IMG/VR virus record: IMGVR_UViG_3300005613_003484
Location: 2,540-66,539 of that record
Strand: one strand, 5' to 3'
Length of the DNA stretch: 64,000 nucleotides
Source: a virus
The notes under the pieces are model-generated. The model was not told the DNA's origin, ran no database searches, and saw only the letters and a program-made list of their open reading frames with translations. Each line of letters begins with the position of its first letter. Within the stretch, counting starts at the first letter, position 1. The translations under genes were made by a program, and so were the position numbers. Below, piece by piece: positions 1,294 through 36,332 of the stretch.

Positions 1294-2096
1294 GCCTCTT
1301 GCTTAGATGGTTCAGTAATTCTACCCAAATATGGATTAAAAGATGTGATTTCTTCTACTTTAAATTTTGCTCCCATTTGTTGCCAAAAATTTAAAATTCC
1401 ATTATAACTATTACGATGAAAAATATCAATGTGTTCTGGGTGAATTGACGAACCCAATTCAATTTTATATAAAAAGATGGGAGTTGCATATGTACATCCA
1501 GAGTTATAAATTAAATCATCAGCTACTGGACGAGGTTTTACTCCGTTATCAAGTTTATATTTATTTCCGCGAATGTGATATCTTATCAATTTTTCTGCGT
1601 GATGTCTCGTAATTACATAACATGCAGTCGAAAAATCATTTACGAATCTAGTATGAATTGGAACTACAATATCACCAGTACAAATAATTGCAAGTTGAAT
1701 TACATCCCAACAATAAGGAACACGAGCGATAAAATCTACCCAAGTAAAGTTCCAATAATGAGCTGTGCCCATGTCGCAATCATCTTCCATAATAATTGCA
1801 TAAGGACTGTCAGAAGTATGATACCAATGATTAATTGCTTTTAAGTGAGATGTTACACATCCAATTTCACCAGAAGTCATCATATCTGGATATTTTCCTT
1901 TTATGATATCGCTTAAATCATCTTCTCTACCATCATATGCAGAAATGCGAGTATAGTTTTCAATCTCCCAATACTCAAATTGTTCCTTCATATACTGCCA
2001 TCTTTCGGGTTGACCGTCCAGATTTATGCAGTACACTGGTCCAAAGTTTTTTAATTTATAAATTGACTTATTCTTGTCTCTCATATTCTTATCCAT
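1290..2096 (-). CDS. glycosyltransferase family 25
   Basis: YCINLD...ERW, RISAYDG, GEIGCVTSH, IIMEDD motifs. Confidence 0.85.
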   Translation of the reverse strand: MDKNMRDKNKSIYKLKNFGPVYCINLDGQPERWQYMKEQFEYWEIENYTRISAYDGREDDLSDIIKGKYPDMMTSGEIGCVTSHLKAINHWYHTSDSPYAIIMEDDCDMGTAHYWNFTWVDFIARVPYCWDVIQLAIICTGDIVVPIHTRFVNDFSTACYVITRHHAEKLIRYHIRGNKYKLDNGVKPRPVADDLIYNSGCTYATPIFLYKIELGSSIHPEHIDIFHRNSYNGILNFWQQMGAKFKVEEITSFNPYLGRITEPSKQEA

Positions 2097-4546: not shown

Positions 4547-5358
4547 TATTTTTCCAAGTAAGTTTTATAAATGTAATCTTCATTGATAAGGAAGTTCTCA
4601 ACAATTTCTAGATTTTCTTTTACCGCATCAAGTTTATCATAATATAGTTCCTCTGTCAACTGAGAAAGATCAAAGTCATCAGTGAGTATGAGGATGCCTT
4701 TTGGATTGAAAAACTTTCCAATATCGGGAGAACCATAATAAATTGGAATGGTTCCAGTAGCAAAACAATCTTGAATCTTTTCTGTAAAATAAGATTCATA
4801 AGAAGCATTTTCGATGGCCACAGAAAACATATAATCTACTAGACCTTCTTCCTTAGATTCAATTTCATTGAATCCCCTACCATAAAAATCGACTTTACCT
4901 TGAAGTTTTTGTGCCCAAGACAGACGATGCTTATGTCCCTCACACATTACCTTGTTAGAGCAAATCATGGAGACTAATTTAGTTTTATCATAAAGTTTTG
5001 GTTCAGCAATCCAACTTCCATACAAAGGAGAGAACTTAAACTTAGAATGCAATTTAAGTAAATCTTTATGATGTGTAAAAATTGCATCATAAACTCGAAC
5101 ATAATGGAGGTAATTTCTCTTCACATCTTCTAATACATCTGGACAAATATTTGCAGATTCTAATAGCCAGGCATATTTCTTTTTGCTGTGCGTGTCATCA
5201 AAAGCGAGACCAATATATCTGTCCACATAAAAAGTCTCTTCTGCTCCAGAATCAACCCACTTTATGAACTTTGATTCTTGCTTATGAATGGAGGAGGCTT
5301 TATTTCCGTTGTCATAGTTATTGAATCCACCTCCAACTAAGTTATACTGTTTTTTCAT
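4546..5358 (-). CDS. glycosyltransferase family 10 (alpha-1,3-fucosyltransferase-like)
   Basis: YMFSVAIEN...YFTEKIQDCFATGTIPIYYG motif. Confidence 0.85.
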   Translation of the reverse strand: MKKQYNLVGGGFNNYDNGNKASSIHKQESKFIKWVDSGAEETFYVDRYIGLAFDDTHSKKKYAWLLESANICPDVLEDVKRNYLHYVRVYDAIFTHHKDLLKLHSKFKFSPLYGSWIAEPKLYDKTKLVSMICSNKVMCEGHKHRLSWAQKLQGKVDFYGRGFNEIESKEEGLVDYMFSVAIENASYESYFTEKIQDCFATGTIPIYYGSPDIGKFFNPKGILILTDDFDLSQLTEELYYDKLDAVKENLEIVENFLINEDYIYKTYLEK

Positions 5359-31435: not shown

Positions 31436-32439
31436 CAAGACCCATAACTAAACTCTTTCTTTGCAATCTCATCCAGTTGTTGCATTACTTCTTCAGTGAA
31501 ATACTTTTCGGGGTTTTTGTAAATTTCTTTGGCATAGATTTTCTTTCCGTCAATCTCATAACGACCCGCCACATTCTTCCAAAGTCCACCGATTTCTCCA
31601 AGCTCCAAGAGACCATAGAATCGGTCCAATCCCCTCTCATCATAGTATAACCTAATCTCAACGTCTTTGTTCTCTTTACTTAAACGCGACTTAGCAGTCT
31701 TTGCCTTGATAATGTTTCCAATGATTTCCGTTCCATCCTTCTCCTTTTTCTTGCTAAGATAAATGATCGTAGAGGCAGCGTACTTAAGACCGCTACCACC
31801 ACCCATTTCTTTTGTAGGAACATAAGCACCGATGACATCGTAGGTATGATTGGTTACAATCATTGGAATGTTTGCTTGACCCAACTTCAGAGTTAGCATT
31901 CTAAAAGCACCCTTGACCAGTTGGGATTTGGTCATATCACGAACTTGTTTATCGTTGAGTGCATCAGTAATCTCCTTTTCGGTAGAAAGCATACCTAAGG
32001 AGTCTAACACAAAAATGCAAGGTTTGCGTTCTTCTGCTGGTTTCTTTAAGTATATATCAACTGCTTTAAGTGCCTTCGATCTAAAGTCCTCAATTGTAAC
32101 AACGTTTACAACAACAGTTCGATCAAGATCTAATCCACGATTCTCTAGAAGAGACTTGTTAACTGCAGCTTCTGTGTCAAAGTATAAACAGTACCCATCA
32201 GGATGAGTATCAAGAAAATTCTTGACGACAGCAAGGCTGAAAAAGGTTTTGCCAGTAGAAGACTCACCAGCAATGGCAGTAATCTTATTACCAGATACAC
32301 CGCCAAATACACTACCTGAAACCAGTGCATTAAAAATGTACGAACCTGTGTCCACATAAGTTTCAGTCTCATCAATATCTGATGCGAGTTTTGTGAAGTC
32401 ATCGCCAATTTCTTTTACGATATCTTTTAAGAAGTCCAT
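31435..32439 (-). CDS. uvsX: RecA-like recombinase
   Basis: GESSTGKT, YFDTE, LDSLG, MGGGSGLKY. Confidence 0.96.
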   Translation of the reverse strand: MDFLKDIVKEIGDDFTKLASDIDETETYVDTGSYIFNALVSGSVFGGVSGNKITAIAGESSTGKTFFSLAVVKNFLDTHPDGYCLYFDTEAAVNKSLLENRGLDLDRTVVVNVVTIEDFRSKALKAVDIYLKKPAEERKPCIFVLDSLGMLSTEKEITDALNDKQVRDMTKSQLVKGAFRMLTLKLGQANIPMIVTNHTYDVIGAYVPTKEMGGGSGLKYAASTIIYLSKKKEKDGTEIIGNIIKAKTAKSRLSKENKDVEIRLYYDERGLDRFYGLLELGEIGGLWKNVAGRYEIDGKKIYAKEIYKNPEKYFTEEVMQQLDEIAKKEFSYGS

Positions 32440-33785
32440 TATGCAAAAAAGCTCTCCAAGCTAATAGTTTTTTCTACAGACCAACCAATTGCATCGAGAA
32501 TTGCCCTTAGAGGTTCTACAAATGCCTTGTCAAATTGTAGTTCATGGTCAACGTATTTGTCAAGACCAAGTTCTTTGGGGAAGTCTTGAATGAAGGAAAA
32601 TATGTTCTCATGAATAATATTTGGAACCTTCAGGTAACAGAATTTAATTTTCTCCCCATTCTGAATTAAGGAATACTTGTTTGTCAGTTTCTTTTCCTTT
32701 ATGTAGTGATTATACAAAAGAGCACCACGAACATGAATTGGAGTCCCCTTTCTGTAAATTGTTTTCTTGTCTTGGAACTTTTCAACATCACTTACAGAAC
32801 GTGGGAATGAAATTTCTTCAGCTGAAAGTTTCTTGAAATCCTTTCTTGACTTCTCAATAAAGTTAATCACATCATCTTCAGTGCCGACCATGACAAGTTT
32901 AAGTGCATCCTTAATCATCTTACGGCAAGGTGCTGGAGTCGAAGACTTAACTGCTTCGATGCCCATAATCTTGAGTTTTGGTTCTTCATAACGAACACCC
33001 TCACTATCCCATACATTGAGAATATAACGCTTCTTCGCAGTCCAAATACCACGATCAGCGATATTCTCTCTCTTCATTTGCATTTTTTGTTCATACGCCG
33101 AAACGTAGTCCGCAAGTTCCTGATAACTAGCGTCGATGAACGGTTCCAATTTATCTTTGCAGATCTTATCAAGTATGTCAACAATTGCTGCTTTATCGCC
33201 AGATTTATTAGCAAAAAATTTAGAAACAAGAGGTCCAAGGTTAAGATAAATTGAGTCAGTGTCAGATGCGATGACATAATCTACACCTTCGGTTTTTAAA
33301 AGGTTATTTAGATATGCATTCATCTTATTCTCAATCCATCGGATTGACACTTGTCCCGATAGTGTAATTGCCTCTGCGTTTGCAAGTTTATAATACCTAA
33401 AGTATTGATTCCCAATGGCACCATAAGCAGAGTTCAAAGAAATCTTTTTTGCCATCTGAATATTATTACATCTAGCAATTTCTTTCTTAACTTTCTCCGA
33501 GGGATTTTTTTCATACTCTTTTTTAGCTTGAATCATTCTCTTTTTGAAAACGACTCGTTCACTGTACATTTTATCCATAAGTTCAGGAAGCATACCCTTT
33601 ACTTTACGATAGAGTGCCCCGTTTGCAGTCATAGTAAGATTTACCTTCTTTAAAGGTTCTAAATCCAAATTTTGATTGAGAAGTTTATCAACATTTACTT
33701 GATTAGAAAGTTCCATTACTTTCTTAAGTGCTTCCAATTCTTCTTTAATCTCTTGAGGGGACATTTGTCGGACATCTTTCCACAT
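32439..33785 (-). CDS. gp43: DNA polymerase gp43, C-terminal part (fingers/palm/thumb)
   Basis: KISLNSAYG (motif B), ASDTDS (motif C), KKRY; ATG at 33785 with GGAG SD. Confidence 0.92.
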   Translation of the reverse strand: MWKDVRQMSPQEIKEELEALKKVMELSNQVNVDKLLNQNLDLEPLKKVNLTMTANGALYRKVKGMLPELMDKMYSERVVFKKRMIQAKKEYEKNPSEKVKKEIARCNNIQMAKKISLNSAYGAIGNQYFRYYKLANAEAITLSGQVSIRWIENKMNAYLNNLLKTEGVDYVIASDTDSIYLNLGPLVSKFFANKSGDKAAIVDILDKICKDKLEPFIDASYQELADYVSAYEQKMQMKRENIADRGIWTAKKRYILNVWDSEGVRYEEPKLKIMGIEAVKSSTPAPCRKMIKDALKLVMVGTEDDVINFIEKSRKDFKKLSAEEISFPRSVSDVEKFQDKKTIYRKGTPIHVRGALLYNHYIKEKKLTNKYSLIQNGEKIKFCYLKVPNIIHENIFSFIQDFPKELGLDKYVDHELQFDKAFVEPLRAILDAIGWSVEKTISLESFFA

Positions 33786-33786
33786 A

Positions 33787-34353
33787 TTATATCTCCACAA
33801 CTTTATTATGTTTTTTGCGGTTTTCACTCATAGTAATAATTTGTAAGTTTTCTTCGTGATGCTTTCCACCTTTAGAAATTGGAATAATGTGATCTACTTC
33901 GTGAGGAATGTTAGTTTCTTTGGTTAGTCGTTTTGCCTCACAATAGATTTCATGTATCTTTTCTTGATCTGCAGTTTCGTCAAAAGCATCTTTCATTCTA
34001 CATCTTCTACGAGCAGCAACAGAATTTAATACTGCCCTCTTATGATCCTCACCCAAATATCTAAATTTTGTAGAGCAAGAATGAGAACAAAACCGAAGTT
34101 TCCATTTTTCATTTATTGCTCTAAATCTACTAACCATAAATTCAATTCCACAATTTTCACAATAAAGAACTTCTTTTCTTTCTTTGTTTTTATTTTCCAG
34201 ATGTTTAGGTTTTTGTAAATTGAACTTTTTTATTTTTTGTTTTATAAGTGGATCAGAGCATCCAAAAAATTCGGCACATTCTTTACGACTTTTGTTTTCA
34301 ATAATATAAAGTTGATGTAGTTGTTCTTTTGTTATATTAAATTTTGGTTGCAT
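33787..34353 (-). mobile_element. free-standing HNH homing endonuclease splitting gp43
   Basis: HTH-like N-terminus, CENC...FCSHSC Zn site, HEVDHIIPISKGGKH..ENLQ.....N; own TATAAATA at about 34375-34382. Confidence 0.88.
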
Positions 34354-34395
34354 TTAATTTTATCCACACTTTATTATTTATAAGGTGAGGATATT

Positions 34396-35667
34396 CTACA
34401 ACATTTTTTCTAACTCTGCAATACGGTTATTAAGTTCGTGCTTTTCAACAAGTGTTTCTGGTGAAATTGCGTACTGCATGATCAAATGCGGATACAGTGA
34501 GTTAAGGTCAAAACTGACCACATAATCATATCTTCCAGGAATTGGTTCCTTCACATAGGCACCAGCATACTTGTCATCTTTATTACCACCAGTCTTTGGT
34601 GGAATTACGATATTCTTTCTCTTCAAGTAGTTGTAGATAATTGCATCCCACATACGAACTTGATAAAACACATCGTTATAGTTGACCTTTGCATCATAGG
34701 CCATCGTCAGAGCAAGTTCAATCAATTTCATCTTGTCTTCCAAACGGTCAACAAGTTCTACGTCGATGATATTATACTCTACAAACTTCTGCCAATTATT
34801 TGTGTAGAAATCTTTAAAAGTATCAAACTCTGAGTGATCTAGTTTCTTTTGGCCAAGTTCAACGAATGCAATATGATCCAGTCGATATGACTCTTGATTT
34901 GTATAAGTGAATTTTTTATAAAGATTCAAATAATCCAATTGAGTAATTCCACCAACATCAATACTGATGTTCTTTCTCCCAGAGATAAAAACCTCCTTTT
35001 CTGTTACAAGACCCCATGGAGAAAGTCTTTTCATGAGTTTCTCACCCAGAACACGATTCATACGCCTTGTAATATAAGGCATATCATAGAGTTCAATATT
35101 CCATCCAGTCACAATGTCTGGGGTATTATCCATCCACCAATGAATAAAGTCATTAAGAAGATCGTACTCAGAATGAAACTGGCGGAATTTGACTTTTGGA
35201 TTTGTGCTATTAAATGGACCAAGACCCCAGGTAATAATATTCTTTGTAGTATAATCTTGAATCGTAATCAGAAGAATTTCTTCAGATACATTAAAGACAT
35301 CTGGGAATCCGTTTTCTGATGCAACCTCAATATCTAAACTATAAAGAGAGATTTTTGAAATATCAAAGTTGATGTGATCTTCTGGATACTTATCGGAGAT
35401 GTATTGATAGATAAACCTCTCATTACCATAAATGGTAAAATCATCGACGCCATCATACTTCTTAATAAAATCCCGACACTCACGAACAGATCCTGGTTGA
35501 ATTGCTTCAACATAGTGCCCATCTAAAGTTTTGTACTTTGTTTTCTTTTTTGAAGATACAAAAAGAGTCGGATTGAATTTCTCTCTGGTCATGAAACTTT
35601 TTCCGTTTTCATAACCCCTGACAAGAAATTGGTCTCCGACCATTTGAATGTTTGTGTAAAATCTCAT
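34396..35667 (-). CDS. gp43: DNA polymerase gp43, N-terminal part (exonuclease and motif A)
   Basis: DIEV, GWNIELYD, YNIID, SFDLNSLYPH; stops shortly after ISPETL. Confidence 0.92.
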   Translation of the reverse strand: MRFYTNIQMVGDQFLVRGYENGKSFMTREKFNPTLFVSSKKKTKYKTLDGHYVEAIQPGSVRECRDFIKKYDGVDDFTIYGNERFIYQYISDKYPEDHINFDISKISLYSLDIEVASENGFPDVFNVSEEILLITIQDYTTKNIITWGLGPFNSTNPKVKFRQFHSEYDLLNDFIHWWMDNTPDIVTGWNIELYDMPYITRRMNRVLGEKLMKRLSPWGLVTEKEVFISGRKNISIDVGGITQLDYLNLYKKFTYTNQESYRLDHIAFVELGQKKLDHSEFDTFKDFYTNNWQKFVEYNIIDVELVDRLEDKMKLIELALTMAYDAKVNYNDVFYQVRMWDAIIYNYLKRKNIVIPPKTGGNKDDKYAGAYVKEPIPGRYDYVVSFDLNSLYPHLIMQYAISPETLVEKHELNNRIAELEKML

Positions 35668-36294: not shown

Positions 36295-36332
36295 ATTATA
36301 AGACCCCGCTTGGTCTTTGTCAAGCGGGGTCT
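36295..36332 (-). promoter_or_regulatory. 12-bp inverted repeat overlapping a consensus promoter for the gp43 operon
   Basis: AGACCCCGCTTG/CAAGCGGGGTCT; TTGACA-17-TATAAT with the spacer formed largely by the 3' arm. Confidence 0.8.

Follow-up and report, generated by a model that had tools for sequence, protein, structure and literature searches.

In Aeromonas phage Aeh1, a free-standing endonuclease gene (mobE) splits the essential gene nrdA of ribonucleotide reductase (RNR), and the tails carried by the two NrdA fragments are essential for activity (Crona 2011, PMC3045599); its authors predicted that further cases would be found. The locus presented here lies in the DNA polymerase gene gp43 of a T4-like cyanophage, IMG/VR record IMGVR_UViG_3300005613_003484, of which a stretch of 64,000 nucleotides (nt) was analysed (the window); it occupies positions 32439-35667 on the minus strand. 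As in the Aeh1 arrangement (nrdA-a/mobE/nrdA-b), an HNH-family gene splits an essential gene near the active site without splicing, the endonuclease gene adjoins or overlaps the downstream fragment, both fragments carry tails, and the catalytic residues are on different chains. The host gene, however, is RNR in Aeh1 and a family B DNA polymerase (PolB) here. The Aeh1 tails are reported to have no database matches and to come, in the view of the authors, from foreign DNA, whereas those of gp43 are homologous to a continuous helical hairpin in unsplit genes such as that of Synechococcus phage S-CAM7. The Aeh1 tails are also charge-complementary (pI 10.4 and 3.8), while both tails here are near-neutral to acidic, and Aeh1 is a single genome, whereas the present split is seen in a population, with gain and loss of the insert, its decay or replacement, and added cargo. 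The principle itself has been established in Aeh1 NrdA/mobE; the split of cyanophage gp43 is widespread and real.

A split of gp43 itself (43A/43B) has been described in the Aeromonas salmonicida phages 44RR2.8t and 25 (PMC2988022). There, too, a T4-like gp43 is encoded as two cistrons, with a free-standing homing-endonuclease gene between them in phage 25 and only a short untranslated spacer in 44RR, like the empty state described below. The 44RR split lies ∼85 residues further downstream, in the fingers region (products of 498 and 391 amino acids (aa)), whereas the present one falls just after motif A, and from this difference in position the two are not the same event. The endonuclease of phage 25 is of a seg-like GIY-YIG type rather than HNH, and no hairpin homology of the kind present here is known for 44RR/25. 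In T4 the topoisomerase genes 39/60 are split by mobA, again with an essential enzyme gene as host and with tail-like extensions (PMC3045599), but the enzyme is a different one and gene 60 has a 50-nt translational bypass without counterpart in this locus. The split-intein fractured genes (Dassa 2009, PMC2677866) are likewise environmental and partly cyanophage-like, with an endonuclease gene between the halves and replication or nucleotide-metabolism genes as hosts, and the gene-breaking model for them includes later loss of the endonuclease gene; their halves, in contrast, carry split-intein parts and are ligated by trans-splicing, while the 13- and 29-aa ends here are without intein motifs. 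Family B polymerases are also made as two gene products in the Archaea Methanothermobacter thermautotrophicus and Nanoarchaeum equitans (PMC2677866), but from unlinked genes with no endonuclease gene between them, and N. equitans uses a split intein. A full-text literature search, in which subscription journals were mostly not covered, found no description of this cyanophage split or of the S-CAM7 hairpin.

Three consecutive minus-strand open reading frames (ORFs) make up the locus (ORF list): the N-terminal part of gp43 (N-half), an HNH gene, and the C-terminal part of gp43 (C-half). The nuclease gene together with the gp43 codons linked to it on either side is referred to here as the cassette. 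In the order of transcription, with strand in brackets, the features are:

34396-35667 (-), gp43 N-half, 423 aa plus stop; N-terminal domain, 3'-5' exonuclease, first palm segment and motif A with D387
34468-34470 (-), A400 codon, left limit of the tract linked to the cassette
34399-34437 (-), N-tail E411-L423, ELNNRIAELEKML, 13 aa; homologous to arm 1 of the unsplit S-CAM7-type hairpin
34354-34395 (-), spacer of 42 nt between the N-half stop and the HNH start
34385-34393 and 34361-34369 (-), arms of an inverted repeat around TATAAATA, 8/9 pairs in the window
34375-34382 (-), TATAAATA box, T4-type late-promoter-like, in the loop of the inverted repeat
33787-34353 (-), free-standing HNH endonuclease gene, 188 aa; PF01844, with a region like a helix-turn-helix (HTH) at the N-terminus
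33793-33796 (-), GGAG Shine-Dalgarno (SD) of the C-half, within the HNH gene at its 3' end and 7 nt ahead of the ATG
32439-33785 (-), gp43 C-half, 448 aa plus stop; remaining palm, fingers (motif B), motif C DTDS and thumb; PF00136
33699-33785 (-), C-tail M1-Q29, MWKDVRQMSPQEIKEELEALKKVMELSNQ, 29 aa; leader, then loop and arm 2 of the hairpin
33591-33698 (-), palm segment linked to the cassette, C-half residues 30-65, VNVDKLL...VKGML; of S-CAM7-like type, unlike the surrounding gene

The original prediction, made from the letters of the window alone, had described gp43 as two ORFs with a GGAG of its own for the C-half, and every coordinate proves correct against the ORF list and the sequence. 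Its free-standing HNH gene is likewise borne out: the ORF matches PF01844 with 33.7 bits (cut-off 21.4, E 4e-8) in Pfam and HNH families in PHROGs, and leaves only 42 nt and 1 nt of the gap non-coding. At its N-terminus the HNH protein matches HTH_28 (Pfam, E 5e-4, below the cut-off). A single nucleotide separates the HNH stop (33787-33789) from the C-half ATG, the ribosome-binding site of the HNH gene is poor, and the GGAG of the C-half is kept in 9 of 14 distinct short junctions. Of 29 distinct spacers, 28 keep the TATAAATA box, and the arms of the repeat are mostly perfect TATCCACAC/GTGTGGATA.

The N-half carries the PolB exonuclease domain PF03104 and the first ∼75 positions of the polymerase domain PF00136 (Pfam). 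PDB matches of the halves are RB69 and T4 gp43 (E 2e-69 and 1.5e-63), and by these matches the split gene product is a family B DNA polymerase of the T4 gp43 type. The N-half aligns with RB69 gp43 residues 3-431 in two stretches, ending ..NISPETIA, while the C-half aligns with residues 547-901 and weakly with 457-495. On this alignment the break is just past motif A, corresponding to RB69 residue 431 and within the first palm segment, the domain limits of RB69 gp43 being those that we assume for it. As had been predicted, the catalytic aspartates are distributed over two chains, that of motif A (D387, in DLNSLYP) on the N-half and those of motif C (DTDS, D175-S178) on the C-half; D387, D175 and D177 are invariant among the aligned sequences.

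The residues that are extra to the two halves were delimited by alignment to the unsplit gp43 of the cultured phages S-T4, S-SKS1 and S-SRM01, a comparison suggested along with the original prediction. It gives an N-tail of 13 aa and a C-tail of 29 aa, with boundaries at ..VEKH|ELNN and ..LSNQ|VNVD, and ∼5 residues of unsplit gp43 are missing from the split version. In a tblastn search of 50,697 phage records with C-half residues 1-66, the sole match was S-CAM7 (55% identity over C-half residues 7-66), a cultured phage whose gp43 is a single coding sequence of 867 aa. At the split site the S-CAM7 protein reads ..QYAISPETL ITMDDLNIMIHNAQ NDPSYDQ EKLEAMLQVRQLSGK INVYKVL... The N-tail corresponds to its first helix (cf. 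..SMDDINNRIAELEKML of other split loci) and C-tail residues 15-29 to its second (L233, ERLEALRAVRELSTK vs EELEALKQVRELSTK), and the proline of the hairpin loop lines up with P10 of the window C-tail, which from about this residue onwards is collinear with the unsplit hairpin, first with its loop and then with arm 2. The uninterrupted helix-loop-helix occurs in 16 of the 19 loci L218-L236, that is, in S-CAM7 and in 15 of 18 related IMG/VR loci (L219-L236), with loops of 7-11 residues. Since the same two helices are joined by a loop in unsplit gp43, the split is, on the sequence comparison, a cut in the loop of a helical hairpin, and the tails are its two arms. Apart from the stop, spacer and nuclease gene, only the leader MWKDVR(Q/K)M (MWKDVRQM in the window C-tail) lacks a counterpart in unsplit genes.

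This changes part of what had been proposed for the locus. Both new ends had been taken for helices gained because of the split; they are indeed conserved, predicted to be helical (with low confidence) and at least partly amphipathic, but the presence of such helices in unsplit homologues had been named as a refutation, and as they do occur in the unsplit S-CAM7-type genes, a gain because of the split is not supported. Similarly, the reading AISPET, which had been noted beside the break, is correct in that A400 stands where NISPET has N, but N is found in insert-free alleles and A or S in all split and hairpin alleles, so that AISPET is, by its distribution, a trait of the hairpin-bearing lineage and the cassette and is not specific to the break. 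The downstream palm segment is likewise common to split and unsplit-hairpin alleles and unlike that of insert-free alleles. A tree of the hairpin segment (64 rows, 91 columns) places the insert-bearing alleles, split and unsplit, together against the insert-free alleles (100/99) and unites the unsplit-hairpin alleles in one clade (100/99); the base of the split group is without resolution on 91 columns, which does not separate a hairpin-first order from re-fusion. On balance we lean towards the hairpin being the older, in an S-CAM7-like lineage, with the endonuclease gene landing in its loop later. The reverse order, in which the unsplit hairpin genes would be re-fusions after loss of the endonuclease gene, is possible but somewhat less probable.

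Selection on the tails was estimated as the ratio of nonsynonymous to synonymous change (dN/dS, by Nei-Gojobori) among distinct sequences, and is lowest in the polymerase flanks (about 0.06), followed by the HNH gene (0.11), the N-tail (0.157) and the C-tail (0.19). In many codons of the tails all variation is synonymous. By this codon-level measure both tails and the HNH gene are under purifying selection and the tails are translated. Invariant positions include N413, R415, I416, L419 and E420 in the N-tail, and M1-D4, M8, E12, I13, E16, L17, L20 and E25 in the C-tail. Single-chain AlphaFold2 (AF2) models are helical, with low confidence, at residues 409-422 of the N-half and 10-29 of the C-half, and the C-tail has a helical hydrophobic moment that 1.4% of its shuffles attain. 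Complex prediction of the tails alone, from 34-aa and 36-aa alignments, gave scores of 0.17 and 0.15 (mark 0.32), values that speak on neither side of the question of binding. A duplication, suggested by MSPQEI in the C-tail vs ISPETL in the N-half, was considered and dropped, as the proline is not conserved in other loci.

The arrangement recurs widely. A search of IMG/VR with the HNH protein found 51 loci (78-99% identity), all of them inside gp43, with the N-half upstream of the HNH relative in 51/51 and the C-half downstream in 44/51, the other 7 contigs ending first. Every gp43 end present among these loci carries its tail, and the N-tail closes all 51 N-halves adjoining an HNH homologue. 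The 27-nt pattern of the C-half leader occurs in at least 89 IMG/VR stretches, and among the 80 listed there are 69 new loci. The pooled set (window, 51 and 69) comprises 121 loci, of which the 104 with both ends reduce to 54 distinct junction sequences. Their states, with labels corrected by eye because the automatic GIY label on HNH loci is a cross-match of the HTH, are:

HNH gene alone, 29/54 distinct junctions
HNH gene and a 54-aa zinc-ribbon ORF, 5/54
HNH gene and a Dam methylase (PF05869), 3/54
HNH gene and a 78-aa ORF, 1/54
a different, nuclease-like ORF of 174-181 aa, 8/54
remnant of the 174-181-aa ORF, 1/54
remnants of the HNH 3' end, 5/54
only a 47-nt spacer, 2/54

The tails are the constant feature, and are kept where the HNH gene is decayed, replaced or gone.

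For comparison, 82 loci were used: in 77 a single frame stays open across the site, 3 are split ∼90 codons further on and 2 end before the site; neither tail motif occurs in any of them (0/82). The split alleles are scattered among such alleles rather than forming one lineage. In a tree of the N-half (residues 1-395, junction excluded; 130 rows, 48 split and 82 comparison) the split state requires at least 10 changes, of which well-supported branches impose 6, and in a C-half tree it requires 9. An approximately unbiased (AU) test with 68 rows rejects monophyly of the split alleles (p 8.6e-6). The window N-half is the sister of unsplit S-T4, and the split loci L040 and L043 group with unsplit S-SKS1. 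Identity along the gene is uneven: among 24 distinct split loci, mean pairwise nucleotide identity stays at 0.85-0.93 in a tract that begins with the N-tail, takes in most of the HNH gene and reaches into the start of the C-half, apart from one gap-affected bin at the HNH 3' end (0.60), and is 0.57-0.84, mostly 0.6-0.75, elsewhere in the gene. Synonymous divergence (pS) is 0.41-0.43 in the cassette vs about 0.7 outside.

The sharpest boundary is seen between the split locus L017 and the unsplit L066, which are 97.5% identical over 1377 nt upstream, the match ending exactly at the A400 codon (N in L066, A in L017), while their C-halves share only 81% DNA identity. This difference marks a recombination boundary at the nuclease cassette. 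Nuclease genes have reportedly been proposed to mark boundaries of genetic exchange (PMC10448857), an idea that the L017/L066 boundary fits. On the other side, blastn matches to unsplit alleles restart only at C-half nt 190-196 in most of the best 25 pairs listed. With identity ending at A400 and resuming there, the linked tract is delimited by alignment as A400 to about C-half residue 65, roughly 880 nt in the window (about 33591-34470). Judged by these patterns, the cassette is mobile: it is sporadic among close alleles, and its flanks are co-converted.

A contiguous polymerase might nevertheless be restored from such a gene by RNA splicing, protein trans-splicing or ribosomal bypass, with the tails as intron, intein or bypassed sequence. 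Group I introns and inteins are frequent homes of homing-endonuclease genes, and a group I intron is said to have been reported by Petrov in 2010 from gene 43B of Aeromonas phage 25. A permissive Rfam scan of 33500-34700, however, found nothing better than E = 1 and no intron family. HNH-less derivatives with a spacer of only 47 nt remain split, and such a spacer is too short for an intron, which disfavours splicing. The boundary residues of inteins are absent (no Cys/Ser at the start, no His-Asn followed by Cys/Ser/Thr at the end), and the tails are far below intein length and are subject to the purifying selection described above. No joint excising the HNH gene was found in the contigs of four runs, which include an RNA library; run X6 shows short-sided joints that come from other organisms and were set aside. 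The view that the locus holds neither a group I intron nor an intein, already reached in the original prediction, is upheld on both counts, and restoration of a contiguous polymerase by any of these routes is very improbable.

Even less credit can be given to the gp43 pieces being a decaying pseudogene or an assembly error, with replication carried out by another polymerase. The viral record is ∼34% complete (CheckV), which leaves room for another polymerase elsewhere in the genome. In the available part of the record, however, these are the only PolB pieces found, with no second PolB and no second HNH gene; both halves are under strong purifying selection (the dN/dS of about 0.06 given above), and all catalytic motifs are kept across dozens of contigs from different samples that share the architecture. 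Contigs of other runs also bridge it: an assembly artefact had been named as a possible refutation, and a 5.2-kb DNA contig of the independent run X1 spans the N-half, the HNH gene and the start of the C-half and thereby both junctions. On the sequence evidence the split is not an intron, an intein or an assembly artefact.

The explanation that we favour, and to which as a whole we assign a probability of roughly 0.7, is that of a working two-piece PolB split by a mobile cassette that carries the arms of a hairpin. The cassette would consist, in order, of the A/S-ISPETL codon block, arm 1 and a stop, the spacer with its late-promoter-like box, the HNH gene, an SD and ATG, the 8-residue leader, arm 2, and ∼35 foreign (S-CAM7-like) palm codons. 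One early transcript would cover the three ORFs and the halves would be translated separately, the C-half from its own SD and maybe also by coupling to HNH termination 1 nt upstream. The HNH gene would be expressed mainly late; the TATAAATA box and its inverted repeat resemble the late-promoter and hairpin control of T4 endonuclease genes. The halves would then assemble non-covalently through the native palm interface. Because the arms leave the body of the protein at adjacent points and with opposite chain directions, they can pair antiparallel, and would zip up like a hairpin with its loop cut open. In mixed infections, the HNH enzyme would cut cassette-free alleles, and repair would copy the cassette with both arms, so that a naive allele becomes a working two-piece allele. 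We infer that the arms hold the halves together or reassemble the active site, and the existence of the unsplit hairpin raises the plausibility of the two arms pairing rather than lowering it.

A number of points weigh against this explanation. In the single-chain AF2 models of the halves the mean pLDDT is 66.8 and 70.5, and only 38-64 in the tails; the N-tail, besides being short, is no more amphipathic than 11% of its shuffled versions. No compensatory changes were found in the inverted repeat around the TATAAATA box when they were sought across the distinct spacers. The uniformity of the cassette could partly reflect constraint on the protein, and the scattered split alleles could come from ordinary recombination without endonuclease action. 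The HNH protein is a homing endonuclease by prediction, and its cleavage of cassette-free gp43 alleles is likewise a prediction. RNA-library contigs of run X5 cover both junctions, unjoined, but the run data are contigs, and those of the RNA library possibly come from contaminating DNA, which makes them weak on splicing. The hairpin of the unsplit enzymes may have a function of its own that is unrelated to holding halves together, and in Aeh1 the NrdA tails are described as unnecessary for the binding of the fragments to each other and needed for a later assembly step (PMC3045599).

The last two points lead to a different account of the same locus, in which the two-piece enzyme works but the tails are not its glue. 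The native palm interface would hold the halves, the nuclease gene would have landed in a tolerant surface loop, and the arms would be kept for the hairpin's own role, e.g. contact with another replisome protein. The helix-loop-helix is kept in unsplit gp43, so selection on the arms needs no split; the dispensability of the Aeh1 tails for fragment binding agrees with this, as does the 44RR gp43A/B split, which lies elsewhere with no such hairpin evident. Yet the cassette brings both arms into alleles whose unsplit relatives, as the comparison loci show, are hairpin-less, which is simplest if a split allele needs the arms to work, and the tails persist in all HNH-less and HNH-decayed derivatives. 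We consider tails without a role in assembly unlikely, though far from negligible.

If instead the arms do serve the assembly of the halves, as we favour, the locus extends the idea of tails as assembly domains, tested once in the RNR of an Aeromonas phage, to the replicative polymerase of abundant marine cyanophages, and adds population-level evidence to it. S-CAM7, with the hairpin in one piece, and its wild relatives, with the hairpin cut open, form a natural before/after pair that bears on how an essential enzyme survives a split, on arms as glue and on an endonuclease carrying its own rescue device. A broader and more tentative proposal, which we consider possible but rather less than probable, is that the cassette is a self-contained gene-splitting module of hairpin arms, stop, SD and start, a mobile alternative to introns and inteins, and that the split then becomes a permanent landing pad for nucleases and cargo. 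If so, homing into a naive hairpin-less allele would yield a functional two-piece enzyme at once, and at the landing pad nucleases would come and go while the Dam methylase and the zinc-ribbon ORF accumulate. In practical terms, gp43 is a phylogenetic marker used in pangenome pipelines, in which the cassette creates chimeric and fragmented gene calls, and short paired helices that tolerate a chain break beside an active site may interest designers of split enzymes.

Several further genes occupy the split site, which acts as a landing pad for cargo. A Dam-type N6-adenine methyltransferase of 151 aa (PF05869, E 3e-30) is encoded in L006 at 4571-5023, and also in L008, L014 and L016; in 3 distinct junction types its gene follows the HNH gene and precedes the C-half. 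The same position is taken in L007 (1339-1500) by a 54-aa zinc-ribbon-like ORF with two CxxC pairs and weak family matches, found also in L013, L025 and L027-L031, and an unrelated 78-aa ORF stands in its place in L009 (4568-4801). The ORF of 174-181 aa that replaces the HNH gene is seen in L142 at 1323-1847 (-), and in L138, L144, L151, L152, L177, L186 and L195. It has a weak GIY-YIG-like N-terminus (Pfam E 0.003, below the cut-off), and at its C-terminus an HTH that shares 45-54% identity with the one at the N-terminus of the HNH protein; from this identity, a single DNA-binding module appears to serve two types of nuclease at the same site.

Split gp43 genes with tails and no intact nuclease gene are found in L179 and L184 (47-nt spacer), in L165 and L174 (96 nt), and in L140, L154, L171, L176 and L205 (103-220 nt). 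Their spacers are empty or hold what is left of the 3' end of the HNH gene or the other ORF, and the deletion in L154 also took the last two residues of the N-tail. L034 and L035 differ in the distance from the N-half stop to the aligned start of the HNH gene, which is 206 nt instead of the usual 42-46; the additional sequence codes for a second N-terminal segment of HTH-like type, and could be a duplication or a longer variant of the HNH gene. L181 has many frame breaks, with diverged gp43 pieces on either side of a tandem row of fragments from the GIY-like ORF, the HNH gene and the Dam gene. Poor assembly or decay of the locus may account for this, and L181 was excluded from every count and interpretation.

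Upstream of the window locus, 5' of the small ORFs that precede the gp43 N-half, there is a perfect sigma-70 consensus (TTGACA-17-TATAAT) at 36295-36323 (-), which by its consensus match may be the early promoter of the operon. Elsewhere in the comparison set, the three loci split further on (L093, L094 and L102) have a gp43 that is continuous at the site considered here and broken ∼90 codons further (..EEEMKRRGIL stop, ∼165 nt, then the rest). By its position this break, near the tip of the fingers and the 44RR split, is a second, independent split site in cyanophage gp43.

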